A DNA stretch of 20,000 nt. It comes from Rhizaria sp. SCN 62-66. Taxonomy: Eukaryota. Of this stretch, positions 2 through 20,000 are shown piece by piece (position 1 is the first letter of the stretch; every line of letters begins with the position of its first letter). The DNA is taken from assembly GCA_001724265.1 (NCBI GenBank), contig MEDY01000020.1, positions 117,450 through 137,449 of the forward strand, read 5' to 3'. The translations under genes were made by a program, and so were the position numbers. The notes below the pieces were generated by a model, which saw only the letters and a program-made list of their open reading frames with translations, had not been told where the DNA came from and did no database searches.

Positions 2-3000
2 GACGCTGAGGCCGAGGCCGAGGCCGAGGCTGAGTCCGCGGAGGCGGAAGCTGACGAGGCGGGCGCGCGCTGCGGCCGCCAAGCGGGCGCTGCGGTCGAG
101 GGCATGGGCCCCTGCACGTGCCCGAAGCCCGACGCGGCGGCCTCCGCGCCCGCCGCCGCGTCCGACAGCGCAGTCGCTGCCGCTGCCTCACCGCGTGTGG
201 ACTCGCGGTCGCCGTCGCCGGCCTCCGCTGCCGCTGCCGCTGCCCCGGTGCTGTCCGCGAGCGACGCGGCGGCGATCGCGGCTGTGACCGCGCTGGCTGC
301 GCGCGCCGCGGCCGCAGTGTCCCGGCTCGCGCGGCGCACGCGCGCGCACGCCGCGCACCTGCGACAGCTCGGCGCCGTGGCCGCCGCGGCGGCGGGCGCG
401 GCGGGCGCGCAGGCCGAGGCTGAGGCCGAGAGCGCGCGCACCCTGCAGACGGCGCGCCGCGCACACGTGCGCTGGGTGGAGCGCCGTGCTCGTCGGGCCC
501 GCGCCGCGCGGCTGGGGCTTGAGGACTCGGACGCGGAGAACGGCGCCGCCGACTGCTACTCGGATACCGAGGACGAACAAGTTGCTGCTGCGCAGCAGGC
601 TGAGCCGCAGCAGGATGTTGGCAAGGCAGATATTGTGACCGAAATTAGCGCTGAGGTAGTACCTGAGGCCGATGCAAGTGCTGATGTTGATGCCGAAGAG
701 GGCTTTAGTACTCCTATTGCTGTCGCAGCCGAGCCTGTCGCTAAGCTTATCGAGCCCTCTGTAGCCTCCGCTGTCGAGTCTGCTGCTTCCGATGCTGCTA
801 GCACAGACTCTGCTGCGGCTGTGGCGGCCGCCTCCGTCTCTGCTGCAGAGTCCACTGCGATTGCAGATCTTGTTGCTGTAACCGAGTCTGCTGTGGCTGT
901 GTGCCCGCAGCATGGCGCATTCTCGCCTCGCTCCATGCGCCCGCGCTCGCGCGCCAACACGCAGTCCCTCTCTCCGCTGCCGGTGTCCCCCGCTCCTGCT
1001 CCTGTGTCCGCCCCTGTTGCCCCTGTGCCTGTACCTGCGCCTGTGTTAAGCGCGAGCGCTGGCCCCGCAGTGAGCGCAGTGAGCGCCGTGAGCGCTGGCG
1101 GCGCGGTGTCGGTGCTCGCGTCGCTGGCGCTGGCGTTCCCATCGCGCCCGCCCGCGGCGTCGGCGCTGCCGCTGCCGCCGCCGCCCTGCGCGCTCGACGG
1201 CGCACTCGCGGCGCGCGCGGCGGCCGTGGCGGCGGCGACGGCGGCGCTGGGGGAGGTCATGGCCCGCGAGCGCGCCGAGGTCGCCATGGCCGTGCGCGTC
1301 GCGCGCGCGCTGCATCGCGACGAGGCCGCCGCGCGCCGCAAGCAGGAGGAGAAGGAACGCGACGCAGCGCAAGCTGCCGCCGACGCCAAGGCCGCCGCCG
1401 ATGCCAAGACCGCAGCGGTCGCCGCGGCCGCTGCTGCTGCTGAGGCCGATGCTGAAGTCAAGACCAAGGCCAATGCTGAGTCTGAGGCCAAGACGGAGGC
1501 AGAACCCGAGACCGGGTCGAAGACTGAGGTTAATGCTGACGCGCCTGCTGATGCCATTTCTGACGCTGTGACTCATGCTGCTGATGCTAAGGCTGTGCCT
1601 GAGCCTGACGTGGCTGCGTCCACTACTGTCGAGCCGAATACGGTTCTCTCTGCTGCTGCGGACGCTGAGCCCGCTGCCGCCCAGTCCGAGGCCGACGCCG
1701 AGGCTGCGGCCGCTGCAGAGGCTGTGGCTGAGGCGAAGGCTGATGCCGAAGCCAAGGCCAAGGCGGAAGCCGACGCAGAGCACCGGCGGCAGCGCCGCCG
1801 CTCCGCGCTGGCCTCGTTGCCGCCGGTGCCGTATCCGTTCCCCTCCTCCGTGGCCGCGCCGTGGATCCCTCTGCCGGGCCTCGCGCCCGGCGACCCCGTG
1901 CCCGCCTCCGCGCTTCCCGTCTCGACTCCCGCATGCGTGCCTGCTACTGCCGCAGCTGCGGCTGAGAGCGTCGTGGCGGCGGCCGTGCTGCCCGCCGCGC
2001 TGCAGCCGCCCGCGCCGCTGCTGCCACATGTCGCCGCGTTCCTGCCCGCGCGCCCGCTGCGGTTGTGCCGCACCGTCGTGAAGCCGCCCGCCGTAGCGTT
2101 GCTGCGGCTCGACCGCACCGGCGACGCCGCGCAGGCCTCCGCGCGCGCCGCCGCCGCCGCGCTCGCCGCCGCCACGGGCGAAGACGACGGCTTCGGCGAC
2201 GACGACGCCGGCGATGACGGTCAGAACGACGGCAACCTTGTCGGTCAGGGCACCAGCGTTGCGACGGAGGGCGCGGGCTCAGCTGCAGCGGCATCTGCCG
2301 CCGCTGCTGCTGCGGCCTCCGCCGCTGCCGCCGCCGCGTCCGGCTCCGGCAGCCGGTCCATGTGGTCCTGGCTGCCATGGGCTCGCTCTGACGCCGACGC
2401 CGCCGCTGCCGCGGCAGCTGCCGCCGCTGCCAGCGCGAACAGCAGCAGCAACAGCAGCAGTCTGAGCGGGAGCAGCAGCAGTTCGTCGCTATTCGGCTTC
2501 GGTGGGCAGTCCAAGGCGACGGCGCCCGTGTCTCTGCCGCTGTCTGCGCCGCTGTTCGGCCAGCACCGCCTTACGCGCGCGCTCGCCGCCGCGCTCCGCA
2601 CCGCCGCCACCACCGCCGCCGCCACCGCCGCTAGCAGTGGCGCCTCTGCGTCCGACGCCACCGCTGATGTCGACGCGCGCGCTGGCGCGCTGCAGCGCCT
2701 GTGCGACGACGCCGACGCTTGGGAGCTCTCTTGCGTCGACCCCGGTGCGTTAGCACTTAGCGCCGGCGCGATCAGCGCTGCGGGCGGCGCGGGCGCGGCG
2801 TACTCGCTGCGCGGGCTCGTGACGCACTCCGGCGCGTCCCGCGCTGGAGGGCACTACGCAGCCGTGCAGGCGGCGCGCGGCGACGGCGTGTGGTACGTGC
2901 TCGACGACGCCGCCGTCACGCCGCTGCTGCTCAACGCGCCCGCGGTCTCCTCGCGCGACGCGTACGTCGCAGTCTATGTCCGCGAACAGACGGCTGGCGC

Positions 3001-3010
3001 GCGGCCCTGA
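2..3010 (+). CDS. Ubiquitin-specific protease (peptidase C19/UCH family), C-terminal part; 5'-truncated by the window edge
   Basis: The frame is open from base 2, so the ATG at 104 is internal. C-terminal His box: YSLRGLVTHSGASRAGGHY (His at 2852-2854), WYVLDD (2891-2908), AYVAVYVR. Upstream KPPAVALLRLDR (~2081-2116) resembles the USP PxxLxxxLKRF box, and KATAPVSLP resembles the KxxxxVxFP box. The Cys box is not in the window. Stop TGA at 3008-3010, followed by an AT-rich spacer. Confidence 0.85.
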   Translation, partial: DAEAEAEAEAESAEAEADEAGARCGRQAGAAVEGMGPCTCPKPDAAASAPAAASDSAVAAAASPRVDSRSPSPASAAAAAAPVLSASDAAAIAAVTALAARAAAAVSRLARRTRAHAAHLRQLGAVAAAAAGAAGAQAEAEAESARTLQTARRAHVRWVERRARRARAARLGLEDSDAENGAADCYSDTEDEQVAAAQQAEPQQDVGKADIVTEISAEVVPEADASADVDAEEGFSTPIAVAAEPVAKLIEPSVASAVESAASDAASTDSAAAVAAASVSAAESTAIADLVAVTESAVAVCPQHGAFSPRSMRPRSRANTQSLSPLPVSPAPAPVSAPVAPVPVPAPVLSASAGPAVSAVSAVSAGGAVSVLASLALAFPSRPPAASALPLPPPPCALDGALAARAAAVAAATAALGEVMARERAEVAMAVRVARALHRDEAAARRKQEEKERDAAQAAADAKAAADAKTAAVAAAAAAAEADAEVKTKANAESEAKTEAEPETGSKTEVNADAPADAISDAVTHAADAKAVPEPDVAASTTVEPNTVLSAAADAEPAAAQSEADAEAAAAAEAVAEAKADAEAKAKAEADAEHRRQRRRSALASLPPVPYPFPSSVAAPWIPLPGLAPGDPVPASALPVSTPACVPATAAAAAESVVAAAVLPAALQPPAPLLPHVAAFLPARPLRLCRTVVKPPAVALLRLDRTGDAAQASARAAAAALAAATGEDDGFGDDDAGDDGQNDGNLVGQGTSVATEGAGSAAAASAAAAAAASAAAAAASGSGSRSMWSWLPWARSDADAAAAAAAAAAASANSSSNSSSLSGSSSSSSLFGFGGQSKATAPVSLPLSAPLFGQHRLTRALAAALRTAATTAAATAASSGASASDATADVDARAGALQRLCDDADAWELSCVDPGALALSAGAISAAGGAGAAYSLRGLVTHSGASRAGGHYAAVQAARGDGVWYVLDDAAVTPLLLNAPAVSSRDAYVAVYVREQTAGARP

Positions 3011-3325: not shown

Positions 3326-6300
3326 TTACGCCCACTCCCAGTCGCGAATATTGCCCTCATCAGGGAGTGCACCCTCGATCTCACCCTGGGTTTGACCCTC
3401 CTCCTGGTGCTGCGGCTGCTGCTGAGGCTGGCCCTGCTGCGCATCGTTGCGCATCCACTTCGTCACTGGCGCCGCGGCAGCAGCCTTTGCCACAATGGCG
3501 GCCTTGGCCTCGGCCTTAAGAGCTGCCCGGGCCTCGGCCGTGGCGCGGGCCTCATCCGCAGTGCTGGCCTGCACCTGCTGCGCCTGCGCCCGAAGCTGCG
3601 CCTGCGCCCGGGCCTGCGCCGCGGCATCTGTCTGCGCCTGGGCCTGCGCACGCGCCGTCGCGAAGGCCGCGGCCTGCGCCAGCACCTGCGCCTGCACCTT
3701 GGCGGCGGCGTCGGCCTTGGCCTTGGCCTCGGCGTTCTCGGCCGTGAGCGCGTCGATCTGCGCCTGCTGCTGCACCAGCTGCTGCTGCGCCTGCTGGAGC
3801 TGATGCTGCTGCAGCGCAGCGTGAAACACTTGCTGCGACGCCGCGTCTACGACCGGCGGCATGCCGTAGCCGTAACCGGTGCCGGCAAAGCCTCCCGGCG
3901 CGACGCCGTAGGCCATGTGCTGCCCGGCGTAGGGCGCGTAGCCATACGGCACGCCAGCGCCCGCCGCGGCCATGCCCGCCGCTGGCATGTGCGGGTGCCC
4001 GGCGGCGCCGTAGCCCGGGGCGGCGCCGTACGCGGCGGGCGCGGGCGCGGCGCCGTAGCCGGGCATGGGGAAGCCGTAGGCACCAGCGCCCGCGTGGGGT
4101 GCCGGGTACCCGTGAGGGTACTGTCCGTGCGCGTGCCCGTGTGTGTGCGCGTACGCGGCCTCGTGGCCCACGGCGGCAGCAGCGGCAGCGGGCTCACCAT
4201 CGGCGTCTTTAACAGCAGCGGCGGCGGCACGAGTCGCGCGCAGCGCCTGTGCCTGTGCCTGTGCCTGCGCAGCCGCGGCGCCCTTAGCACCTGCCGCCAC
4301 GGCGGGAGCGCCTCCAGCTGGGACGGGAGCGACCGAGTCGTTGCTGACCCAGCCCATAACGGGGCGGTCGCGGGCGGGTGGCGCCGCCTTGGCCAGCGGC
4401 AGCGGCGCCACAGGGTGCAGCGCCTTGGGCGGCTGGTACGGGCCCTTGAAGGTGTTAGCATTGCGAGCAGGACCAACGTTGCCGCGGTAATTGTTTCCTC
4501 CGGTGTTGTAGACCTTAGCAGGCGGCGCGCGCTGTTGATGTTGATGGTGCTGTTGCCGCTGCTGTTGCCGCTGCTAATGCTGTTGATGCTGATGCTGCAC
4601 GCGGCCGCCGTCGGGGCTGTGGTCACCACGGATACGGTCGTCCGCGCGGGCGAACTTATTGCGGGCCCCTGTGAAGTTGCTGTTGTTGTTGTTGTTATCG
4701 CCATTGTTCTGGAGCTCCGCCGCCTCCTCGGCGGCCTTCTCGCGCGCCCGGCGCAGCGCGCGCTCACCCGCGGCCATGCACCGCGCCGCAAGCGCTGCCG
4801 CCGACACAGAGTGCTGGCGTCGCGCCGCAAGCGCCTCCGCGCTCTCAGCCTCGGCCGCCGGCTCCTGCTCCTGCTCCTGCTGCTGCTGCAGTTCATGGTC
4901 GTTTCCGTCCTGCATCGCAAGCACGGGCGCGGGCGCGGGCGCGGGGTCCCAGGCCGCGGCGTAGGTGAGCGAGCCGAGCATTGCGGCGAGCGCAACGGCA
5001 GCCTGCTCCTCGTCGTTGGCATTGACCGTGACGACCGCGGCGAAGCCCTCGCTGGCGACGGGCGCCTCGAACTCGTCCTGCTGGCGGTGCACGACGCCGC
5101 CGACGCGCGCGCGCGCCTCTGCGGGCGACTCGTCCGCCTGCGCGCCCAGCCTCAGGTGGCCCACGCGCGCCAGGACGCGGTCGACCGAGTCCTTGGCCGG
5201 CAGCAGCAGGTGCACGCACAGCCGCAGCGGCAGCGGGACAGGCGCCACGCCGAACGCCGCGGGCGCCAGCGCCGGCGACGGCAGCTGCGTCGGCATGTTC
5301 GCGGCCGCGGCGGCGGCGTCGGCAACGGCCGCGGCCGCGGCGATGGCGGCAACAGCGGCGCCGTCGTTGTCGCGCGCAGCATTGTTATTAAGATTGTTGT
5401 GATCGTTCACGACAACACCGTCCTCCTCAGCTTCTTCTTCGTCGACGAAAGTGAATGCAACGTGACCGGGCTTAAACGCCACAGCAGGGGCAGCAGCCGG
5501 AGCGGCGCGTGCGGCAGGAGCGGCGGCCGCCTGTTGCTCGCGCCGCCCCTGCCTGTCCTGCTCTAGCTGCTGTCGCAGATTCTGGAGCCGCTCCGCCGCG
5601 TCCACCGCCTCCACGGCCACGACGGCGTCAATGGCGGCGGCGGCGGCGTTGAGCTCCGCCTCGGCCTTGGTAAGCGCATTGACGGCGCGCGCGTCGGGCG
5701 CCTGCGGCGCGGCGGCCACGTTGAGCCAGTGCGCGCGCTGCTGCTTGGTGAGGTTCGTGCGGTCCACGACGAGGCGCGGCACGCCCAGCGCGTCAAGCGC
5801 GGCGTCCCACGCTCTCACGCCCGCGGCCACGCGGTCGCGCTCCGCGTCGCGCTGGGCCTTGACCTGCTCGCGAGGCTTGTTGTTGGCGTTGTTGTTACCG
5901 GCCAACGCTTGCGTCTCGAGCTGGTTCAGAGGCAGCGGCAACAGCGCGGGCAGCAGCGCCGCCAGCGCGGGCCGCGAGCCCGACACAAGCGCGTCGGACA
6001 GCCCCTGGCGCGCGGCGGCGCGGGCCGCAGCGGAGCTAGACAGCAGCGTCGCCGTCGCCGCGTCTATCGCGGCAGACGCGGCGGTCACGACAGGAGGCTG
6101 CTGCAGCTGTTGCTGTTGCTGCTGCACATGGAGAGGGAGAAAGGCCTCAGCAGGGCCCGCGGCAGCCTCGTCAGCGGCGGCCCGCGCGGCGGCCGCGGCG
6201 ACAGTCGTGGCGTAGGCTGCACTCAGCGCGGCGGCGGAAGCGACGTTGTCAGCGAGATTGACAGCGGGAGTCAGCGCGGTCGTCACTGCGAACTCGCACG

Positions 6301-6568
6301 CGCGGCGGTCGCCCATCGCGTCCTGGTTGACCACGCACCACGGTGACGCAGTGTCAACGTCCTCGGTGATGGCGGCCGCGGCGGCAGCGGCGGGCAGAGC
6401 GGAATTGGCTCGCAGGGCGCCCGTGAAGGAGGACTTGCCGGCGCCAGAGAGGCCGACGAGCACAATGAGGCGCGGCAACGGCAGCAGAGATGGCCACTCG
6501 TTACTCGTAAACGACGCCGGCAGCGCGCCCGCGCGCGCCAGCGAAGGGTGGATGCGGAACGAGAACAT
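3326..6568 (-). CDS. P-loop kinase (AAA_33 / polynucleotide-kinase-like) with a long low-complexity C-terminus; about 1080 aa if the in-frame TAG at 4574-4576 is read as sense
   Basis: Walker A LIVLVGLSGAGKS (~6431-6470), WCVVNQDAMGDRRAC, LVVDRTNLTKQQRAHW, HLLLPAKDSVDRVLARVGH and FEAPVASEGF occur in the order typical of AAA_33 kinases. ORFs 4574..6568 and 3326..4411 share a frame and are separated by one TAG plus 54 sense codons. True stop is TAA at 3326-3328, before AT-rich DNA. The start is uncertain because the frame is open up to 6691, so an upstream exon is possible. Confidence 0.8.
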
Positions 6569-6987
6569 TCCGAGCTTGGCCGAGACGCGAGGCAGGACCG
6601 GAACGGGTGGGTTCGCTCTATGGAAGATCGCTGCGTTGTTTGGAGAAAACTGGACAGGGGATTCAAGCGCAAGATGTGATGAGTCTGCGTATTAAATAAA
6701 GTAAAATGTGTTAAACAACACAGTAAACTCTAACAAATTCGTGTTATTCCGACCTGACGACGTATATAGAGCATTATCAACATGCTTATTGTGTGGACGA
6801 ACGATCTCGGTCGGACGGCGCTGCCACAGAGAGACCACCACAAACGAAGCGTGGCTCATAAGCATTGCTGTTGCGCACCACAATCATCGTCAAAGCAAGA
6901 TTGTTTGTGTGCTTATTGGTTTAAACGTGGTTTTAACAACTTGTCTTGTTTTTTGTGCTTTTAATTGCTTAGGAACGCGCGTATCGC
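6569..6987. promoter_or_regulatory. Short divergent intergenic region (putative bidirectional promoter) between the P-loop kinase and TRAPPC5
   Basis: Head-to-head genes about 0.4 kb apart with a drop in GC content. No specific motif identified. Confidence 0.4.
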
Positions 6988-7768
6988 ATGGATCCACTGA
7001 CCGGTGCCCGCAAGCCGCTGCCTGACGGACGCGGCGAGGTTCCCCTGAGCACCTTCACCTACATGTTCAATGAGGTGATTCGTTACTATCAGAACCAGGC
7101 ACAAGACATCAACGACATTGAAGCTGGGTACGTCTCTTATCAGCGCTATCCGACCTGAGCCGTGGAGTCCTCATATTGCGCTCTGTTCACCTCCGTTCCC
7201 TCGATATTTCCATGTCCTCACTAACCGTTGTCTGCCACTCCTGTATAACCTTGTTTTCTTGTGTCGCCCCCTTCGAAGCCTGCACCGCATGGGCGTGTCG
7301 ATGGGCCCGCGAATTTTGGAGCTGCTGGCGTTCCGGGAGGGCAAGCACCAGCGCAAACCTGCTGGCTCGCCGATCGCGCTGCTGACCTTCGTGCAGACGA
7401 CTGTGTGGCGCGCGCTCTTCGGCCAGCCCGCGCGCGGGCTCGAGCGCTCGGGCGAGGCGGCGTGCGAGTACTTCCTGCTCGAGGGCGAGCCGGTGACGAA
7501 CCGCTTCGTGTCGGTCCCGCGCGCGCTGGGCCAGCTCAACTGCGCGGCGTTTGTTGCCGGGATCGTCGAGGGCGTGCTTGTCGCAGCAGGGCTGCGCTGC
7601 GGCGTCCAGGCCGCCTGGGCCGCCGCGGGCGCCGGTGCTGCGCAGCAGACTGTCTACGTTGTGCGCATCGAGTCGGAGGACCCCGGGGCCGAGGCCGTCG
7701 CGCAAGCTGAGGCCGAGGCCGAGGCTGCTGCTGCCGCCGCCGCCGCTGCGAACAACACTGGCAAGTGA
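6988..7768 (+). CDS. TRAPPC5: Trafficking protein particle complex subunit 5 (Trs31); exons 6988-7127 and 7279-7768
   Basis: Exon 1 reads MDPLTGARKPLPDGRGEVPLSTFTYMFNEVIRYYQ (EVSLSxF-type motif). Exon 2 reads LHRMGVSMGPRILELL...VWRALFG...EPVTNRFVSVPR...QLNCAAFVAGIVEGVL. Splicing 7128-7278 restores the frame (GG|C = Gly). Stop TGA at 7766-7768. Confidence 0.93.
7128..7278 (+). other. Spliceosomal intron in TRAPPC5 (151 nt, phase 2)
   Basis: GTACGT donor, CACTAAC branch-point-like sequence near 7219-7225, pyrimidine-rich 3' part and an AAG acceptor. Removal joins conserved coding blocks in frame. Confidence 0.85.
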
Positions 7769-8322: not shown

Positions 8323-10108
8323 ATGTCTGACGACCCCTGGGCCTCCCCCGCTCCTGGCAAGCGCGCCCACAACTTTACCGCAGGTACGAGCAAATCCTTG
8401 TGTAACACCTTGACCCCTCTATCATCCGCGCTGTTCGCTTCTCTCTCCTCAACTCCGCATTCACAAAGTGTCCTCGACTCACCTCTCACTTGACATCCGC
8501 ACGTCGCTCAACCCGACACACAGGCCCGAGCGCACTGCCCGCAAGCGTCCTCGTTGAGATTCAACGCGAGATGCTTGATTTCGCAGGCATGGGAGCCGGC
8601 GTGCTAGAGGTCAGCCACCGCTCCAAACCCTTTATGGCCGCCGTCAAGGAGGCCGAGGTCGACCTGCGCGCTCTCATGTACGTCATCACATCAAACGACA
8701 CGTGCCAAATCTGTCAGCCTAATAGTATCTACTGTGTTTCTATTTGCTATGGTTGCACTCGTATCTGTGTATCAACTGACTTCGTCTCGTCTTACTCTTT
8801 TGTAGCAAACCCCACTTGCATACTCATCCTCGCATGAACTGTTTCGTCATTGTCCACATTATATCACTACACGCCCGCGTCTACTCTCTCCAGCAACATC
8901 CCCGACGACTACGCGGTAATGTTTGTGCCCGGTGGTGCGACGACCCAGTTCGCCTCCGTGCCCCTCAACCTTTTCAACCACCTCAACATCACCAACGACA
9001 GCGACAGCAAGGCCGCTGCGCGCCCGACGGCGCACTACGTGGTGACGGGCGTGTGGAGCGAGAAGGCCGCCGAGGAGGCCGCCAAGTACGTCGACGTCGT
9101 CGTCACCGCGACCTCCAAGTCGGCTGAGGGACGCTACCAGTCCCTCCCGGTCCTGCCCGCCGCGGACGCCGACAACGCCGCGCTGCAGGGCCCCGCGCCG
9201 CTGTACACCTACGTGTGTTCGAACGAGACCGTCCATGGCGTCGAGCTCCCCCTCCCCGGGGCCTCTGCGGACTCCGCGGCCGGAACCAGCGGCGCTGGAG
9301 ACTACGACGCGTACGCGTGGATCGAGTCGCTTGCGCGCCCGGGCTCGCTGCTCGTGGCTGACATGTCGTCACACTTCTGCGGCGCGCCCTTCGACGTCTC
9401 GCGCTTCGACGTCATCTTTGCGGGCGCGCAGAAGAACATCGGCCCCGCGGGCGTGACTGTGGTGATCGTGCGCAAGGACCTGCTCAAGCCCGGCGTGGCG
9501 CGCGCCGACACGCCCGTGATGCTGTCGTGGGCCACGGCCGCCGCCAACGGCTCGCTGTACAACACGCCCCCCGCGGGCGCGCTCCACGCCACGGGCAAGG
9601 TGCTGCGCTGGCTGCGCGGGCCCGTCGGCGGGCTAGCGCGCGTCGCCGCCGTCAACGCCGAGAAGGCCGCCGCGCTGTATGGCGCCATCGACGGCAGCGA
9701 GGGGTTCTACTCTGCGCCCGTGCAGCCCGCCGCGCGGTCCAAGATGAACGTTGTCTTCCGCATTAAGGGCGGCGACAAGGTACGTTTGCGCTTTGTGCGC
9801 AGTGATTTGGCCTGCTATGCTTTGTTGTGCCTCTGTTATGTTCTGCTTGTAGTTTTCTATGGTGTATCGAATCTACCACTTCATTCTCACTTACACTCTA
9901 AATTATTATTTTTGCTTTTATCATACTTCCTCCGCAGGCGCTGGAGGCCGCGTTCGTGTCCGAGGCCGAGGCCGCGGGGCTGCTGGGGCTCGACGGCCAC
10001 CGCTCCGTCGGCGGGCTGCGCGCCTCGCTCTACAACGCGGTCTCGCGCGCCTCCGTCCAGGCGCTCATTGCGTTCATGAACGAGTTCCGCGCCAAGCACT
10101 CCGCGTAA
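8323..10108 (+). CDS. PSAT1: Phosphoserine aminotransferase (SerC/PSAT); exons 8323-8383, 8524-8677, 8894-9779, 9938-10108
   Basis: Spliced product contains [63 protein letters not shown] (PLP lysine), [15 protein letters not shown] and [15 protein letters not shown]. It ends [14 protein letters not shown] (10106-10108). Confidence 0.97.
8384..8523 (+). other. PSAT intron 1 (140 nt, phase 1)
   Basis: GTACGA donor and CAG acceptor; removal rebuilds NFTAG-PSALP. Confidence 0.92.
8678..8893 (+). other. PSAT intron 2 (216 nt, phase 2)
   Basis: GTACGT donor and CTCTCCAG acceptor; removal gives DLRALI-NIPDDY. Confidence 0.9.
9780..9937 (+). other. PSAT intron 3 (158 nt, phase 0)
   Basis: GTACGT donor, T-rich body and CCGCAG acceptor; removal gives KGGDK-ALEAAF. 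Confidence 0.92.
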
Positions 10109-10333: not shown

Positions 10334-13300
10334 TCATAACACTTCAGCTCCCGTGCCCGGCGCGGCAGTTGCTCCCGTCGCCGCCCTCGCTGCCTCGAGG
10401 GCCTCGAGCTGCGTCCGCGCGCGCGCAATATCGCGCACCGCGTGTGCGCTGAAGGGCACCATGTCCCTCGCCGCGTCCTGTGCAGCCCACTGCGGCCGCC
10501 ACTGCCACGCGTGAGACCACCGCGGCGGCGCGTCACTGCTGTTACCATCCACACCGTCGCTCGGTAGCTGCATTTGCGACTGCGGCTCCGGTTGCGGCTG
10601 TGTATCCGTGACAAGAACGGCGTACGCGTGCGTTTTGCGAGCGCGCATGTCGCGCACTCGCGCCGCCCACCGCGCATCAGCGGCATCGTCTGCTGCAATA
10701 GCAGCAGCAATGCCTGTGGCACCTGTAGAAGTGGAAGCGTCGGTGTACAACGCAGAGTCAGCGACTGCGGCAAGTGGGTCCGCGGTGTCCGCAACGTCTT
10801 CAAGCGCCCACAGCGCCGACAGCAGCGGCGAGGGCAAGTCCAGCAGCAGCAGCCACAGGTGCGACGGCAACAGCACCCGGCGTGCCTGCGACTTCGGGCA
10901 CAACCGCGGCAGTAGCCAGGCCAGCGCGGCGGAGGGCGGGCCCGAGTGCGCCGCAGTCGGCGGCGCCAGCAGCATCGCAGACACTGACACCGCAGCCGTG
11001 TCCTCGGAGGCGTTTGCGAGAGTCATCGTCGGTGACGCTGCCGATGCCGTAGCCGGTGCATTGTTGGTGATGATGGGCTGCTCGTCTGGGAGTGGCGTTA
11101 ACAGCCAACGCAGATACACGCCTGCGCCGGTTGCACTCGCGCTCGTCCTTGTGGCGCTAAGGCCAAAGTCGGACGACTCAAGACCAGTCACTGCACGCAG
11201 CACGGCCGCGAATGACGCCTGCCGCACAAGCGCACCCAGCGTCAGTCCCATGTCTCCTGGAGAGCTTTCCTGCGCAGCGGCTGCCGCAGCGTGGCGCAGC
11301 GCGTCGCGCGCGGCAAGCCGCAGCGCAGCGAGCGCGTGCGGCAGCAGCGCGCGGGGGAACGGCGCGGCGAGCAGCGCCAGCACGGCGGGCGCCAGCAGCG
11401 GCGGCGGCAGCGCGAAGTTGAGGTGTGGTAGCAGCGTCGTCGCCGGCTGCGCGACGGGACACAACGCCGCCGCGTCCACGCCACCGTCGCGCACACTGTC
11501 CGCAAAGGGCGGCGCGGTGAGTGTCGCGTGCAGCAACCCCGACCCACGGCCCTGCGCCGCCGCCAGCGCCACGTCGCGCAGCGCTGCCGTGGTAGCCAGC
11601 CGCGCGTCGCAGGCGCCGTCGCACGCAGCGCCGCTGACGCGCTTGGTGCAGTCAGCAAGGCCGCAACGGTCGCCCTGGAGGCGGGAACCGCGCCGCAGCC
11701 GCAACGCCACTGGGGACAGCGCTGAGTCGTCATTATTCGTGATGTTCTTCGTGGCAGGACTCACTTTGCCATTGTTCGCCTTGTAGTTGTTGGCGGTGTT
11801 GAGAATTGCCTCGACGGCGTCAAAGTCAAGCTCAACCTCGCCCGCGCCCGCGTTCGAGCTCTCGCGGCAGTGTTCGCGCACTGCCTCGCGAGCACCAGAA
11901 GTCGCAGTCGAACTCGCACAAGAGCTTGATGCGGCTGTCGGTTGTGCCTGCGGTGCAGACGCGGCAAGCGCAGCGGCAGCTTCCCAGGGCAACGGTGGGT
12001 TGAGTGTGTGCACGCAGTTACTCGTAATGAGACCCGCGAACGCCCCTGTACCCACGGTCACACGAGCCGCTATATCTGCTGACTCACAGTCGCTGCGAGC
12101 GTTAATGCCACGAAGGCGCGTGTTCGCTGCGATCGCAGTGCCTGGTGCGTTGACAGAGAGGTGGACGCTGTCAGTGACTGTGACGAGCGCGCCGCCTGAA
12201 GCGCCGCCGGAGACTGCACAGTCCGTCTGCACCATGCTCATCATCGTCGTCGACGCTGTGGGTGCTCTCTGCAACTGCGAGTGGGGGGCGCGGACCGAGG
12301 GCGTTACGATTGTCACTGCGGCAGTGCGCGGCAGCGCAACAGAAGCGACTGTGATTACGGCGGGCAGTGTAACACTGAAGGTAAGTCCTTCGCCGCATGC
12401 GCTCCTTGCCATGCCGGTCACAGCGTCGACACCGATTGCAGCATTGACGTCCGTATCACCAGTCGCGCACGCAGTGGGGGCGTTCTTCGCCGCAGTCTAG
12501 GCCCGCACGAGCGCGGAGTGGAAGGGACACGTGGCAGCGAGCGCTGCGGCGGCAAGCGGCGCCCAGCGCGGCGCCGGTAGCCGAGTGACGCGCGCGACCG
12601 TGCCCGCCGTGGTCGTCGCCGCGGGCCACGCCGCGCCGCGCCACAGCGCAGACGGCGACGCCAGCGACGCCAGCGGTGGCGGTGCGGCGCCCTTCGACGA
12701 CGCAGCTCTGCCAGCGCTCCCGGCGGCGGCGGCAGTCGCGGCGGCGGCAAGCGCGTGCGCACCGATTTTGCCGCTGGCGCTGTGCGGGTGCAGGCTGTGC
12801 GAGTGCGGCTGCAAATGCGCGTCGCGCGCAAGGAAGGGCGGCGGCGGCGGCGTCAGCACGGGGTGGCCCACGGTCACCACGCGCTGCCCGCGTGCAAGCA
12901 CCGGCACGCGCACAGACGCCGCAGCGGCGGAGGACGAACAAGCATTCGACGGCGCAGCCTGCGAGAGCGGGTGCTCGAATTGCTGTGCGGACTGTGTGTG
13001 TGAGTGCTCATGATCGTGCGTTTGTGGGTCGTCGCTGGTGCTGTAGCCGCATACGCAAACAGGCACAGAGGCAACTGCGGCGCACACTACGTCAGACAAC
13101 CACGTCTCCCATGCCTGCTCACGGTCACCCAACAGAAACGGCTCACATTCACCAGTCGATTGGCCGCGGCTGATGTCAGAGAGCAAGTCAAGCACGGACT
13201 GCGGAAGCACAACAGATACTGCGTATGGCACCGATGCAATCGGAAGCAAAACCGGCACGGGCACAGCAAGAGGCATTGATCGTGGCATTGATTGGGGCGC

Positions 13301-16300
13301 TGAAGGCGTGACTGCAACAGCGCGCTGGAGTGGCAGCGGCAACGGCGGCGGCGTCGGCAGGCGGATCGCGATGAGCGCAACGTCGCAAGCGCCCGCAGCG
13401 ACCCACAGCAGCGACGCGGGCAGCCACAGCGGCGCGCCGCCCGGTGCGGCCAGCGCAGGCCCGGCCCACTGCAGCGCGGCGGGGCACGCGTGCCAGAGCG
13501 CGGGGTCCACGCGCACGCGCAGCGCCGCAGCGGGGGGCAGCTGCGCGCGGCCGCGCAGCGCGCGCGGGGACACGGCCCGCAGCAGCCGCCGCTGCGTCGC
13601 CACGGCGGCGTCCACGGTCGCCGTCTCGGGCGCTCTCTCGTCGTCCGCAGACTCCGCGTTCACGCCAGCTTCATTCGCAGCGCGCGCGTCGTCTTCAGCG
13701 GCGGCAACGGCGGCGGCGGCGGCCTCAGCGGGCGCGGGCAGCGGAAGCAGCAGCGGCCGCACCAGATGCGCACTCGTCAGCGCATACGCAATGCCACCGT
13801 GCGCGAACTGCATCATCGGCGACTGCGACTGTGAAGACTGCGGTGCGCGACTGTTGGTGGTGACCGTAAGCGTACGATTGGCGACCGCGAGCGGGCGCGG
13901 CGGCGTGCAGTGGACCACGACCGCAGAGCCCCACGAAGAAGCGCCCGCGCGCACGAGCACGACGCTGCGCCCCGCGGGCAGCCCCGTGGGCAGCGGCGAC
14001 TGCAGCCACCGCGCCAGCGACTGCAACTGCAGCAGCAGTGACTGTGATCGAGGCTGTGCGAGGGGACGGGGCACGGACGCTTGCTGTGGGCGCAGAAGCG
14101 GTGGGTAATGCGAGTGGTGCTGCTGGTGTTGATGTTGGTGTTGATGCTGTAGTTGCTGAACGTGCGTGAGCGCGTGTGTCTCGCATGTGCCTGCTTGCAT
14201 CGCATCTGGTGCATATGGCACTGAGAAGCGCGAGTTGCTTAACGAATCTTGCGGCCCGCGCACCTACAAGCGCGCCTACTGCGGCGCTGCTAGCAACTGC
14301 GACGGGACAATCGGCGGCAGCGCGCTCCAACGCGCGACGAGAAAGGCGAGCGCGGGCGCCGAGGCCGCGGTGGGGATCTGTGCCGTGAAGGACACGCACT
14401 GCCACGACAGCTGCGCCAGCACAGGCGCCATCGCGCTGACTGCGCCGTCGCCAGTGCTGCCGCCGCCGCTGCCCGAGGCGGTGATGGCGGCTTGGACAGC
14501 GGCGACGAGCGGCGGCCGTGGCACGGCAACTTGCAGCAGCGGCAGCGACATCACGCCGCAGAAAGTCAGGCCGCCACGATAATCTCCGTCGATGGCATCA
14601 CTGTTGTTGCTGGTGGCATTGTGATTGGACGCAGAAGACGTGAGAAGCGCGCCGCCCTCGGCTCCGGGCAGACAGCGCATGTCCACTAGATACATCGACG
14701 CGGACGCAGCGTCGCCGCTGCCGGCTGTTGCAGTCGATGTGGGATCACCTCCAGCGCCTGCCACGGCCACGGTCACGGTGGTCATGGAAGAACCTGGCGA
14801 CGGCGACTGCGAGTATGGTGACTGCAACTGCAGACTTGGCTATGACTGTGACGGTAAGCTTTCAGCAGCCGAGTGTGGCGTGAAGCGTGCGGCGAGGGTG
14901 CCCCAGCCGGCGGACAGCTCTACCAACGCCGCCGCAGCGCGCGCGCTCAGCGCCGCCGCCGACAGCTGCGGCGATTGTGCCTGAGGCGGCGACTGCAACG
15001 GCGGTTGCTGCTGTTGCTATTGCTGAGAGGCTTGCAGCGACTGTGACGCTGCAAACGTGGGCGTGTAGGTGCGGCTCTGTCCGTGTGCGTGGCGCAACCC
15101 AGGAGCGTCACTCTGGTTCGCACTGTGCGATTGACTGTGGGCAGCGCCCTGGCTGCGACTGCTACTGCTTCGGCGAACGCTCGTCTTTGTCGACGAACCC
15201 TTAGGTGCCACAGGCTGCGAATGTTTTTGAGGTCGCTGTGGCTGGACATACTGCGCTGGTTGCTGCTGCTGCTGAGCCGGCGCTGCGATCGCGTGTTTCG
15301 CGTCCAAGTACCCCCTTAGTGCGACCGGCAGCGCGGGCGCAACGAGGTTGCCCACGGCGCCCGCGGCGGCCGAGCCCAGGAACGCTAACGGCGACAGCGC
15401 GCCGTAGGGCGTCGCCAACGACACCACGCGCGCGCCCCGCGACAACCGCTGCACGCGCACGTGCACGTCTGGCGCTGGCGCAGACACAGGGCGCTGCAGC
15501 ACTGCGCTGGCCGCACCAAGCGGCGCAAGAGTAAGATATGGGCAGTAGAGCAGCGCCCAGCGCGCGGCGTCCTCCACCGGCGCAGGACCCAGCGACGTGA
15601 ACTCAGCACCGCCGTCCGCTGCGGTGCTCTGTACCGGAGAGGAGTGCGCGACGGGTCGCTGGAGGTTGACAACGGCGTCGATGATGCGCTGCGAGGGCCA
15701 GCCCACGGTCCAACCGCCCGGCCAGCCGCCGCCGGGCGCGGGCGACACGCGCACCGTACCAGCAGCGGCCGTCAGTGGTGCAGCAACTCCGACAGCACCG
15801 GTGTCAGAGCTGAGGCAAGGGTGAGCGTCAGCGTGAGTGTCCCGCTGAGGCGGGCTGAGTGCGGATGCACTCGCACCGAGGCTGACGCCGAGGCTCTGAC
15901 CTAAGCTATGGCCGAGGTTGTAGCTCTGGCTCTGGTTCTGGCTCGAGTTTGCGCTCTGGCTTTGCTCAAGCATGCGCTGCAAGTAAGCCTCGTGTTGCTT
16001 GTCAGTGCTAATACTGGGATTATTGCTAGGAGTGCCGCTAATGCTTTGTCCTTGCTGCAGCGGCAGCTGCTGCTGCTGCAACTGTTGATGTTGATACTGC
16101 TGCTGCTGTTGCAGGGCCTCAACCTCCTCGGCCAATCCGTCCCCGCCCGACGTGGAATGCAGGCCGCCTGCGCTGGAAGTCAGGCCGCCAGACGCGATGC
16201 CGCTGGTGAGCCTGTTTAGCGCCGCTGCGGCCGCCGCAGATGTGCCCACACAGAGCAGCGAGCACGGCAGCCAGCGCGCGCGCGCACTCGCAGCGCCTGC

Positions 16301-17155
16301 GCTCGACGTGCTCTGGCAAGGGGGATCGCTAGAGTGAGAGGGTAAGTCAGCCGTGTCTAACAGCGCTGGCTCTGAGAGTGTCGGCGGGGCAAACGCAAAC
16401 GTGCCTTCAGCATAACTCAAGGCGTGACTGTGGGCAGAGTGACTGTGAGGGATGTCAACGAGGATGTCTACGGTCGTGCCGGGAGCTAGCGGCGGCCGCA
16501 GACAACGCGATGCGGCCGCAAAGGCGCGTCCATGCGGGTCCCGCGCTAGCCGCGACAGCGGCGACGTCACAACTGTTGCGGAGCCACTGTTGCTGCTGCT
16601 TGCAGCGTGAGCGCTGTTTTTGCGTGTTGCAGTGGTGGCGAGGTATGGTGCAATGAGGGCGCCAGGGCAGAGAATAACAACGCCGTGGCCCGCGGGTGAG
16701 AGTGTGAAGCCGGCGTTTGCGACGATGCTGCGCAACGGCGACAGCGGAGGAGCTCCAACAGATGCTTCAGTAGCCGTTGATGTTGATGCAGACGCAGTAA
16801 CAGCCGCAGTGACAGCAGAGCTGTGAGTCTGAGGCGTTGGGGGTCCGTATACGCGCCCTGTAAAACCCGTTGTTGGCGCAGTGGCAGTGCCAGCAGTGGA
16901 ATCGTGGGGCGTTGCAGTTGTGGCCGCGCCGAGAGGGCAGAGGGGGAAGATAGTGCCTGATGCGGCGGTGATCACGCGCGCCGGGCTGGCGGGGTCGTGC
17001 ACGAAGGACGCAGCGCGTGCGGCCACGGCGCCGGTAGGGTCAAGCCCGGACACACGCACGAGCGCCACGCGCGTCGCTGCTGCGTCCAGATGAGGCAGCG
17101 CGCACGCCGCAGCGCGGGCTGCCGGGAGGGGCGCCGAGCTCGGGAATGTTGACAT
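10334..17155 (-). CDS. TYSND1: DEG15/TYSND1-type peroxisomal leader-peptide-processing trypsin-like serine protease; 2273 aa in one frame with five in-frame TAG codons
   Basis: ORFs 15017..17155, 14276..14827, 12497..14263 and 10334..12421 are all in one frame. Family motifs appear in order: VALVRVSGLDP, TAASGTIFP, RGARVVSLATPYGALSPLAFLGSAAAGAVGNL, YLVDMRCLPGAEGG, SVVLV...WGSAVVV, LTSAHLV (His 13766-13768), DVALIAI (Asp 13382-13384), VVTVGHP, GTVARV, MVQTDCAVSGGASGGALV (Ser 12197-12199), GLITSN, LPHLNFALP, LSALWAL. Internal TAGs at 15017, 14840, 14276, 14264 and 12497. Terminal TGA at 10334-10336. Confidence 0.88.
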
Positions 17156-17854: not shown

Positions 17855-20000
17855 ATGCGGCTCCCCAGCCCGCCGCAGCCTCGGACGCTGCAGCCGCCGC
17901 TGGCAATGCCGCTGCCACAATCACTGACGACGCCGCAGTCACCGCTGGCGACGCAGAAGCCCCGGGGGCCGGCGCACGCCTCGTTCCTGACGCGCGCACC
18001 GTCGCTGCTGAGCTGTGCCGTGCTGCTGAGCGCGCTGCTGTCGGCGCTGCTCTCGCCCGCGGCCGCGATGATCGTCAAGGATGAATCGGTCTCGGTGCCC
18101 TCCGACTTCCGCTTCAGTTCGCTCTTCTCCTTCACGTTCGCCCAGGGCGGCAGCCTTGACCTGACGCTTAAGGCCAAGATGCCGCTGCCTGTGACGTTCA
18201 TGCTTTGCTCTGACGCGGCGCTGTCGCCGCTGCAGGCGTCTGACATCTCCTTCTCCGAGCTCTGCAGCAACCCGCGGCTGTACTTGCCCGCGTGCACGCA
18301 CTACGGGTCCAACGATACGGACCCCAGCTCGGTCACCTACACCAGCGCGCACGCGCTCATTGGCAGCGCCGGCGCGGGCGTGCCCATGTCCACCCAGAGC
18401 ACCCAGAGCAACACACACACCGCCCACGGCCACGCCCGCGCTGCCGGTGCTGCTCCGTACAGCGGCAGCGGCAGTGGCAGTGAGCGCGTGTCCGGGTCCG
18501 TGGCCGCGCAGTCGCGCGCGCACCACTACGACGACGAGAGCGGCGGCTGGGGCGGCGGCGGGCTTCCCTCGGCCTCCATCACCGCGACGCTCCTCAGCTA
18601 CCTGCCCTTCACCTCGTCGCACGCGCCCGTCGCTACCGCCAACGCGGTGCGCAGTGACGTAACGCGTCGGCACGGCGCCCGCGCGCGCCCAGCCAGCACC
18701 GACGCCGACGCCGCCGCCGGCTCTGACGCGGGCGCCAGCTCCGGTGACGGGACTGGGACTGGGACAGGGGATTACTACTACGAGGACACGCCGGTGTACA
18801 GCGACCTGGCGCTGGAGCGCACGCTGGTGGTGGACGTGCCGTCGATCCCTGCGCGCGACCGCTACCGGCTGCTGCAGCTCAACTGCCGCGAGACAGCGTG
18901 GTCGGGCTCGCTGAGCTACACCGCCATGAACCCCGGCGGCGAGCACCTGTCGCTCACGCTCGTGCCGTACAAGACGCTCTACCTCTGGCTCGTCGTCGCG
19001 TACGTTTATAGTTACACATTCATGTTAAAACTGCAATGCTTAATCATATCATCGTACAGCAATGCGTTCATCTTAACTTCATGCTGACTCACGTCTTGTT
19101 CATACCTCTCTTCTTCTCCTGCGTGCACTCTATTTCAGCTGGATCATCGGTCTGGTGACGTGGGTGCTGCACTGGGCGCGCTACTGGCGCTGGTACGTGC
19201 TGCCGCAGCTGGCGCTGTCGCTGCCGCCGCTGCTGCAGATGCTGCAGTCGTTCGCGCTGCTGCTCTACTGGCGCACGTGCTCCGTCACGGGCATCATGCC
19301 CGTGGGGCTCTACGCGCTGTCGTTTGTGCTCACGCTCTCGGCGCGCGCCGCGCTCTTCTACCTGCTCTTTGTGCTGGCCGCTGGATGGGGTATGGTGTCG
19401 CGCCGCGTGGCTCGCCCGCTGCTGCTGCGCATCGGCGCCATAGTCGCCGTCAACGCGATGGGGCTCGCCATGTACCACCTCAACCTGGGCCTCGCCGTGC
19501 TCATCCTGCTCATCAACTACGCCGTGCTGTGGCAGGCGTTCGGGCTGGTGTGCCTCGTCACGCGCCGCACGCTCGACGCGCAGGCGCAGTTGCTGCTCTC
19601 GGTCGACGTCGCGCCCTCCAAGACGCCTCTGGCGGCCAAGACGCACGCCGTGCACACGCTGCACGCGGGCGTCGCTGTCTTCATCCTCGCCGACCTGACG
19701 GTGCACATGTGGTCCTCGGTCGCCGCCGCCACGGCACCCTGGGCCGAGGACGCGCTCGAGCACGCCTCGGTCGCCGCGCTCTGGGCGCTCGTCGCCTGGG
19801 GCGCGTACCGCATGCGGCCCTTCAACCCGCATCTCAACGCGCTCGCGCGCGCGCAGTCGTCGCCGCTGGCCGCCGCCGACCTGGCCGCGGTCACAGCCGC
19901 GCTGCGCCCGCGCATCTCGCCGCCCGCGCCGGCTCACTTTGCGGTCGCCGCCGCCGATGCCGCGCGCGAGGCTGCTGAGGCGCAGGCCGCCGCTGACGCT
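17855..20000 (+). CDS. GPR107/GPR108/TMEM87-like (lung seven-transmembrane, GOST family) membrane protein; exons ~17855-18999 and 19139 to beyond 20000; 3'-truncated
   Basis: Signal-peptide-like LLSCAVLLSALLSALLSPAAA, luminal FSFTFAQGGSLDL, and juxtamembrane YTAMNPGGEHLS...PYKTLY. After splicing there are multiple hydrophobic helices, including LFVLAAGWGMV and the terminal YRMRPFNP. The exon 2 frame is missing from the ORF track because it runs off the window. The start codon is uncertain. Confidence 0.75.
19000..19138 (+). other. Intron in the 7TM gene (139 nt, phase 2)
   Basis: GTACGT donor, GCTGAC branch-like motif near 19083, pyrimidine tract and TTTCAG acceptor. Removal gives LWLVVA-WIIGLV, completing the first TM helix. 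Confidence 0.9.

Follow-up and report, generated by a model that had tools for sequence, protein, structure and literature searches.

Nuclear codes that turn stop codons into sense codons nearly always reassign UAA and UAG jointly, and in the few published cases where UAA stays a stop, the meaning is leucine, glutamine or serine. In the accessible parts of the reports concerned (PMC5304391, PMC11687900, PMC9161772), UAG alone is read as leucine in the rhizarian exLh and as glutamine in Iotanema spirale (PMC5304391), as leucine or glutamine in phyllopharyngean ciliates and as serine in Scotinosphaera (the last two as cited in PMC11687900). Glutamate appears in the published text available to us only alongside recoding of UAA. 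For example, Oligohymenophorea sp. PL0344 reads UAA as lysine and UAG as glutamate and has ten tRNA genes with a CUA anticodon, its tRNA-Sup(CUA) being nearest to tRNA-Glu (PMC10553269). Both UAR codons are glutamate in Blastocrithidia (PMC12153298) and in peritrich ciliates (as cited in PMC11687900), and the accessible text of PMC12440015 names only Blastocrithidia for such recoding. Here we describe a stretch of 20,000 nucleotides (the window; G000:C20:117450-137449, contig MEDY01000020.1) from the 34.9-Mb, 714-contig assembly of Rhizaria sp. SCN 62-66, in which a long minus-strand frame resembling an HtrA-type protease contains five TAG codons, one of them (12497..12499) between putative catalytic residues.

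We propose that the nuclear code of this flagellate protist would keep UAA and UGA as stops and use UAG as a rare glutamate codon. UAG would be read by one nuclear tRNA gene that joins a tRNA-Glu body to a CUA anticodon, and changes of the release factor eRF1 at its stop-reading motifs would reduce UAG recognition. The protease mRNA would then be read through 12499-12497 into a single polypeptide carrying His, Asp and Ser, with the inserted glutamate falling in an unconstrained loop insertion. That UAG is a sense codon genome-wide, with UAA and UGA kept as stops, we hold to be very likely, and glutamate is its probable meaning. We lean, by a little over even chances, toward the fuller picture of an undescribed early-stage code in a GC-rich non-ciliate protist, in which UAG for glutamate is the rarest sense codon, the one tRNA that reads it is nearer to tRNA-Glu of bacteria than to that of its own genome, and the UAG of the eRF1 mRNA possibly provides a feedback resembling the one on bacterial RF2.

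As far as the accessible reports describe them, exLh, Iotanema, the phyllopharyngeans and Scotinosphaera resemble the present genome in having UAG as sense, UAA and UGA as stops and a CUA tRNA predicted or found, and the Iotanema eRF1 is likewise altered at T32 (T32G, compared with T32S here; PMC5304391). In contrast to these codes, the tRNA found here is of the glutamate type without a long variable arm, and Leu, Ser, Tyr and Trp score worse as readings. At least one UAG is present in most of the 71 marker genes of exLh (PMC5304391), while UAG makes up 0.017% of codons here. Reading UAG as glutamate through a glutamate-like CUA tRNA would be shared with PL0344 (PMC10553269), but UAA is sense and there are ten CUA genes in that organism, whereas the present genome stops mainly at UAA and yielded a single CUA gene and no sign of a UUA tRNA. 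Blastocrithidia and the peritrichs also have a tRNA-Glu(CUA) for UAG and avoid recoded codons in highly expressed genes (PMC12153298, PMC11687900). However, they recode UAA as well as UAG, in Blastocrithidia with a fall in GC, while the present genome has GC-rich exons and would recode UAG alone.

Our literature search, with most subscription papers outside it, found no code in which UAG is glutamate and UAA a stop. Reassignment of UAG alone is a known kind of change, and its glutamate meaning beside UAA and UGA stops is probably a variant that we have not found described. If true, it would constitute a further nuclear code, and one in a GC-rich genome, to which an explanation by AT pressure is consequently inapplicable. 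The combination of a rare codon, a single tRNA gene and a slightly altered eRF1 would provide a test case for codon capture versus an ambiguous intermediate, and the tRNA(CUA) and eRF1 pair is a candidate natural eukaryotic amber-reading system. Additionally, gene callers truncate the genes of this organism at TAG, and a Pfam-based code scan would meet few informative sites.

TAG codons in the protease frame and across the genome

Over 2,298 codons, from 17230 to 10337, the minus-strand frame contains neither TAA nor TGA and no frameshift, and it is closed by TGA. Counted from its first ATG at 17155 to the TGA at 10336-10334 (10334..17155), it has 2,273 codons and five TAGs, starting at 15019, 14842, 14278, 14266 and 12499. 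By frame translation the first of these (codon 738, 15017..15019) lies within a polyglutamine run and the second (codon 797, 14840..14842) in Ser/Gln-rich surroundings, while the pair at codons 985 and 989 (14264..14278) comes after the N-terminal part and ahead of the protease domain. The TAG in focus is codon 1578 (LVRA*TAAK, 12497..12499), which we read as sense, probably glutamate, a meaning taken from the genome-wide evidence. A preliminary description of the locus had placed His, Asp, this TAG and Ser in one frame, and we find them there as minus-strand codons 1155 (TSAHL motif, 13766..13768), 1283 (CDVAL motif, 13382..13384), 1578 and 1678 (GASGG; Ser at 12199-12197 within the motif MVQTDCAVSGGASGG, 12191..12235). 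It had also called the catalytic triad intact. The shared frame is compatible with this, the catalytic roles remaining putative assignments from motifs and a tool match obtained for the Ser region only, which aligns to the HtrA Ser motif and matches Pfam Trypsin_2 at E=0.004, under the family cut-off.

Comparison by eye with an HtrA1 chain identifies the HtrA-type motifs GQRVVTVGHP and TTTAGTVAR (12590..12889) upstream of codon 1578 and places this TAG in a loop expansion of about 120 residues that follows the TAGTV-type strand and precedes the QTD motif. The claim that no AT-rich intron surrounds it agrees with our analysis, as 60-nt windows over the site have a GC minimum of 0.62 and no in-frame GT..AG intron of at least 50 nt with GC below 0.58 can excise it. 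By comparison, four real introns, three of them in eRF1 and one in an aminotransferase gene of the window, are 134-292 nt long with GC of 0.37-0.52. After codons 985 and 989, GC drops to 0.52-0.58 in 150 nt, so a cryptic intron may be present at the 14264-14278 pair. Three database proteins (P0002, P0130 and P0131) all stop exactly at ALVRA, the residue before codon 1578, from which it follows that other assemblies carry this TAG too; those assemblies may share their source with the present one.

Translation through this UAG, as had been proposed, is judged most likely, and the TAG inside the protease gene would be one instance of a genome-wide reassignment. It is not, however, the strongest evidence for sense decoding that it was taken to be, since greater weight attaches to the TAGs in eRF1 and in kinase, Ubc6-type and SUV3 domains, to a stop-codon census and to the cognate tRNA. 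The DNA examined comprised about 1 Mb of the 34.9 Mb together with protein-family match tables. The census covered 966 kb by codon-model scoring, and is thus model-based, not transcript-based. After coding-like sequence, coding continued past 28 of 38 TAGs compared with 3 of 96 TAAs and 5 of 64 TGAs (pooled, 8/160 for TAA and TGA versus 28/38 for TAG; Fisher p about 1e-18). TAG is nearly absent from gene ends, with terminal-like sites lacking a splice donor numbering 69 for TAA, 47 for TGA and 5 for TAG; one of these five is the internal codon 989 of the protease frame and the other four are unverified. A run over 615 kb with different cut-offs found coding to continue at 10/26 TAG, 0/53 TAA and 0/37 TGA. 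Two loci (L077 and L090) contain possibly TAG-terminated genes, or a TAG no more than 20 codons from a TAA or TGA, and could represent residual stop use.

In-frame TAGs occur at alignable positions in eRF1, five kinases, a Ubc6-type E2, SUV3, a USP5-like gene and a Ras-family gene. Nine of 142 kinase matches have a single TAG, of which three are intron acceptors, one is unclear and five are internal. No usable TAG site was present in 149 WD40, 20 ABC, 54 kinesin, 43 DEAD, 25 SNF2 and 114 mitochondrial-carrier matches, nor any TAG among the 37,464 codons of dynein-locus frames; the single TAGs of these matches are intron acceptors or lie beside a donor. In total TAG accounts for 30 of 174,709 filtered codons (0.017%). 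The same set contains 65 ATA and 79 AGA codons, which are depleted in codon-biased genes as TAG is.

The release factor and the CUA-anticodon tRNA

The only eRF1 gene found (L034:1117-1827, G000:C63, minus strand) has an in-frame TAG at human Glu107 in a gap-free alignment, so the release factor would be makeable only via reading of UAG. Among 117 homologues this position is E in 108, D in 8, V in 1 and Q in none. T32S, G57S and L124M are each found in 0/117 homologues and T58K in 1/117, while NIKS, E55, S70 and YxCxxxF are retained. Lying at stop-reading motifs, the four substitutions probably weaken UAG recognition. In the accessible text of PMC5304391, T32 forms a bond with the G of UAG, and the corresponding residue of Iotanema is Gly; its supplementary alignment, machine-read and with columns that may be off, gives G57S with T58K in Tetrahymena and T58K also in standard-code ciliates. 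At the measured rates, a gene with the codon bias of eRF1 would contain a TAG with a chance of 1-7%. This figure is a weak hint of feedback control through the UAG of the eRF1 mRNA, and P0007, a metagenome eRF1, is without that UAG. P0007 shares T58K, M34V and F114V with the present eRF1, not T32S, G57S or L124M, and is a candidate standard-code relative. A further sequence considered as an eRF1 transcript (L184) was rejected, being genomic and identical.

A pattern search for CUA anticodons gave 16 matches, and scanning of 15 loci yielded one tRNA with this anticodon (ARAGORN; Rfam tRNA 58 bits), encoded at G000:C84:76008-76080 (L053:1501-1573, minus strand) and found in one copy in the genome. 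A T-run follows the gene, whose neighbours on both sides are GC-rich genes of the host type. Its acceptor and T stems are of the tRNA-Glu type, and there is no long variable arm. The UCC..GGA acceptor-class pattern has ten matches, namely eight Glu-CUC, one Glu-UUC and tRNA(CUA) itself. Identity to the organism's own tRNAs is 64% for Glu(CUC), 49% for Gln(CUG) and 40% for Gln(UUG). In E. coli, where 5,393 of 5,426 genomes match, all eight among the matches listed are tRNA-Glu, and among 25 matches listed in a phage collection, 16 are annotated, as tRNA-Glu (12), Sup (2), Phe (1) and other (1), with none as tRNA-Gln. On these sequence features, tRNA(CUA) is a glutamate-class tRNA. No Gln-type CUA tRNA was present among the 16 pattern matches or five DNA-search matches, and a search for UUA and UCA tRNAs gave 41 pattern matches (control 42), none tRNA-like by eye save a shifted match to tRNA-Lys(UUU).

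Two further features of tRNA(CUA) were observed. It carries A37-A38 after the anticodon, and it shares 74-75% identity with E. coli tRNA-Glu across 56-65 nt, compared with 64% over the full length to its own tRNA-Glu(CUC). A bacterial or organellar origin may be considered.

The amino acid read at UAG and the competing explanations

Ten TAG sites within Pfam matches were scored under eight residue readings. Left out of this scoring were acceptor TAGs, the insertions L087 and L181, the unclear site L091, L219 with its possible donor and the possibly mobile L159. Relative to Glu, the summed bits are -3.5 for K, -4.0 for Q, -6.9 for D, -7.6 for S, -14.9 for Y, -18.0 for L and -21.4 for W. Leu, Tyr and Trp, some 15 bits or more behind, were rejected as the meaning of UAG, and so were Ser and Asp at deficits of 7.6 and 6.9 bits. 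At the TAG column of the kinase hinge, 20 of the organism's 27 paralogues have E and none has Q, Asp occupies the TAG-equivalent positions of yeast Ubc6 and human SUV3, and a conserved Gln position is found at 0/10 scored sites. The protein sites thus appear to rule out residues of hydrophobic or aromatic character and to favour Glu, with the tRNA class bearing most weight; charging with Glu and its insertion at UAG would follow from the lead of 3.5-4 bits together with that class.

Several results weigh against this interpretation at one level or another. When the kinase hinge site is removed, the lead of Glu falls to 1.6 bits over Q and 0.3 bits over K. Ser is found at the TAG position of KSR, the nearest solved relatives of the hinge-TAG kinase, as well as at the TAG-equivalent positions of human UBE2J2 and a second SUV3 chain, and Leu is the best-scoring residue at the USP5-like site. 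TAGs are found in polyglutamine runs but in 0/81 E-rich sites, and a neighbour-context score over 42 TAGs gives Q +26 bits versus E -11, a preference that flips when four Q-run sites are left out. In the ubiquitin-like domain of L159, TAG stands where own paralogues carry CAG. A few possibly terminal TAGs remain in the census and family scans. P0007, which at 84% identity is the closest relative of the eRF1, has Val at 107 and no internal stop, so position 107 is not fixed within the lineage. As for the protease, nothing beyond its own fragments turned up when 5.8 billion and 1.84 billion proteins were searched for homologues, a single-sequence AlphaFold model has a pLDDT of 37 and does not confirm the fold, and no sequencing-run piece among the matches listed lies over 12497.

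The L159 locus itself (G000:C681:1512-4727) has an internal repeat, the ubiquitin-like domain, a Peptidase_S74 tail-fibre chaperone domain and two TAGs opposite Gln of the repeat or paralogue. It may be an integrated viral or mobile gene, possibly decaying.

The best of the alternatives, although unlikely, is that UAG encodes Gln, as in the table 15 proposed by the preliminary description. A Glu-bodied tRNA(CUA) would then have been captured by glutaminyl-tRNA synthetase, in the way amber suppressors are mischarged with Gln in E. coli, or a tRNA-Gln(CUA) would have been left unassembled. The TAGs in polyglutamine runs, the L159 TAG replacing CAG and a deficit of just 4 bits at the ten Pfam sites speak for it, as do the published UAG-only Gln codes (in the accessible text of PMC5304391 and PMC11687900). 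On the other hand, Gln is absent at the TAG sites from all 117 eRF1 homologues and all 27 kinase paralogues, and the Gln-type CUA tRNA that was sought did not appear. Moreover, 948 Q-rich sites contain 3 TAG, 6 GAG, 8 AAG and 132 CAA codons. TAG is thus 44 times rarer than CAA and as scarce as the non-synonymous GAG and AAG, which fits a non-synonymous drift from CAG to TAG. Table 15 is probably the wrong code, as the only CUA tRNA found is of the glutamate type and the conserved sites lean to Glu.

Somewhat less likely again is that UAG is ambiguous, with a suppressor tRNA competing against a partly terminating eRF1, or with Glu and Gln inserted as a mixture. Full-length protease would then be made in part, and the UAG of the eRF1 mRNA would serve negative feedback. 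The single tRNA(CUA) gene versus eight for Glu-CUC would suit this, as would the rarity of TAG overall (30/174,709) and in dynein-locus frames (0/37,464), the NIKS, E55, S70 and YxCxxxF still kept by eRF1, the 1-7% chance of finding a TAG in so codon-biased a gene and the few possibly terminal TAGs. However, the rarity of TAG parallels that of the sense codons ATA and AGA, which are equally depleted in biased genes, the P0007 eRF1 is without a stop at position 107, and five leaky stops in the protease gene would entail heavy loss of full-length protein.

It is highly improbable that the standard code applies, with TAG a true stop and the protease a pseudogene or two split genes. The frame is of low complexity, rich in A-ending codons and without detectable homologue, it has five TAGs, and 7 of the 15 downstream strain differences listed change the residue, all of which speaks for this explanation. 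But the frame extends over 2,298 codons without TAA, TGA or frameshift, TAG also lies within the essential eRF1, in the only copy found, TAG is nearly missing at gene ends and a cognate tRNA is present; a simple pseudogene was rejected on the grounds of the otherwise intact frame, the TAG in eRF1 and this tRNA. As improbable is that the mature mRNA no longer carries the TAG, either through splicing or because A-to-I editing has made it a Trp codon: GTGCG donor-like words do occur upstream, one making a 12-nt GT..AG that ends at the TAG, and no RNA piece among the matches listed covers 12497-12499, but splicing was rejected on the local GC of at least 0.62 and on the loss of conserved HtrA motifs that a longer in-phase candidate from 12913 would cause, editing on Trp being the worst-scoring residue (21 bits behind Glu), and the eRF1 alignment, gap-free at its TAG, also speaks against this explanation.

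The protease, strain variation, lineage and neighbouring genes

With UAG read as glutamate, the encoded protein would be an HtrA-type protease by weak matches. In addition to the Trypsin_2 match, 11 of 11 PDB matches of the Ser region are HtrA/DegQ chains (E=0.2-1.4). The His/Asp stretch has no Pfam match, the whole frame has none either, PDZ included, and a genome-wide Trypsin_2 search found two other genes and missed this locus. The protease domain spans approximately residues 1150-1750 of 2,298 and is followed by a tail of about 600 residues after Ser; the protein is present as four fragments in the protein collection. The name DEG15/TYSND1, given in the preliminary description, is unproven and is unconfirmed by any search, the homologue searches having returned own pieces only. 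It is based on the general domain layout and on similar motifs, such as ATPYG and YLVDMRCLPGAEGG (14651..15415, minus strand), which resemble the DEG15/TYSND1 N-terminus and for which the homologue search gave no relative. Members of this subfamily are expected to have PTS1, a C-terminal peroxisomal targeting signal, while EVL, which is not of the PTS1 type, closes the present frame before TGA; a further, unseen last exon may exist. The accessible text of PMC3473262 describes DEG15/TYSND1 (Deg/HtrA clade IV) as having an N-terminal extension, a protease domain toward the C-terminus and no PDZ. The present protein appears similar in its N-terminal extension, subsequent putative HtrA-type protease domain and lack of a PDZ match. 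It differs from the 709-residue Arabidopsis DEG15 in its length of about 2,270 residues with very long loop insertions, and from DEG15/TYSND1 in its tail past Ser, its EVL end and the absence of detected sequence homology.

The sequencing runs that hold this stretch are bioreactor, wastewater, activated-sludge and fuel-cell metagenomes. A contig from an RNA run covers the TAGs at 15019 and 14842 with zero differences. However, the aminotransferase intron 9780-9937 is still present in a second contig from this run, so the RNA-run contig could be DNA and we draw no support from it. Two contig pieces carry 17 strain differences, and synonymy was counted on the at least 15 that lie downstream of codon 1578. 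Of those listed, 8 of 15 are synonymous versus 28% expected (p=0.03), all in run X4. The preliminary description had raised neutral evolution of the downstream part as a possibility, and these differences instead lend mild support to constraint on the Ser-bearing half.

Eleven dynein heavy-chain loci in the assembly indicate a flagellate, and the GC-rich exons and introns longer than 130 nt make a ciliate unlikely. The eRF1 has M34V, I38V and L126M in common with Guttulinopsis and V38, V39 and V45 with exLh (supplementary alignment of PMC5304391, as far as available), a weak hint at Rhizaria. An 18S rRNA gene (L156:1501-5945, G000:C706) is AT-rich and divergent and matches group I introns at four places; two of these matches lie side by side, downstream of a frame that may encode a homing endonuclease. 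This gene, which we take to resemble heterolobosean rDNA, may be foreign and co-binned. A 2025 heterolobosean phylogenomics paper reportedly describes non-canonical codes. Each of the ubiquitin genes (L157, L158, L160, L161 and L164) encodes one unit, which is extended by two residues at the N-terminus and by a short tail at the C-terminus and carries several substitutions; a polyubiquitin junction was not found in the assembly.

Within the window, the protease frame is accompanied on the minus strand by a 1,121-codon frame (3329-6691) that has a P-loop motif at its N-terminal end, extended Ala/Gln-rich regions and no confident Pfam family, and whose one TAG (4574..4576) lies in a polyQ/H run. 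The plus strand holds the end of a ubiquitin-specific protease gene (2-3007), a TRAPP subunit (6985-7765), the class-V aminotransferase with its intron at 9780-9937 (8838-10079) and, by a weak match, a GOST seven-transmembrane-like gene (19077-20000), each with exons free of internal TAGs.

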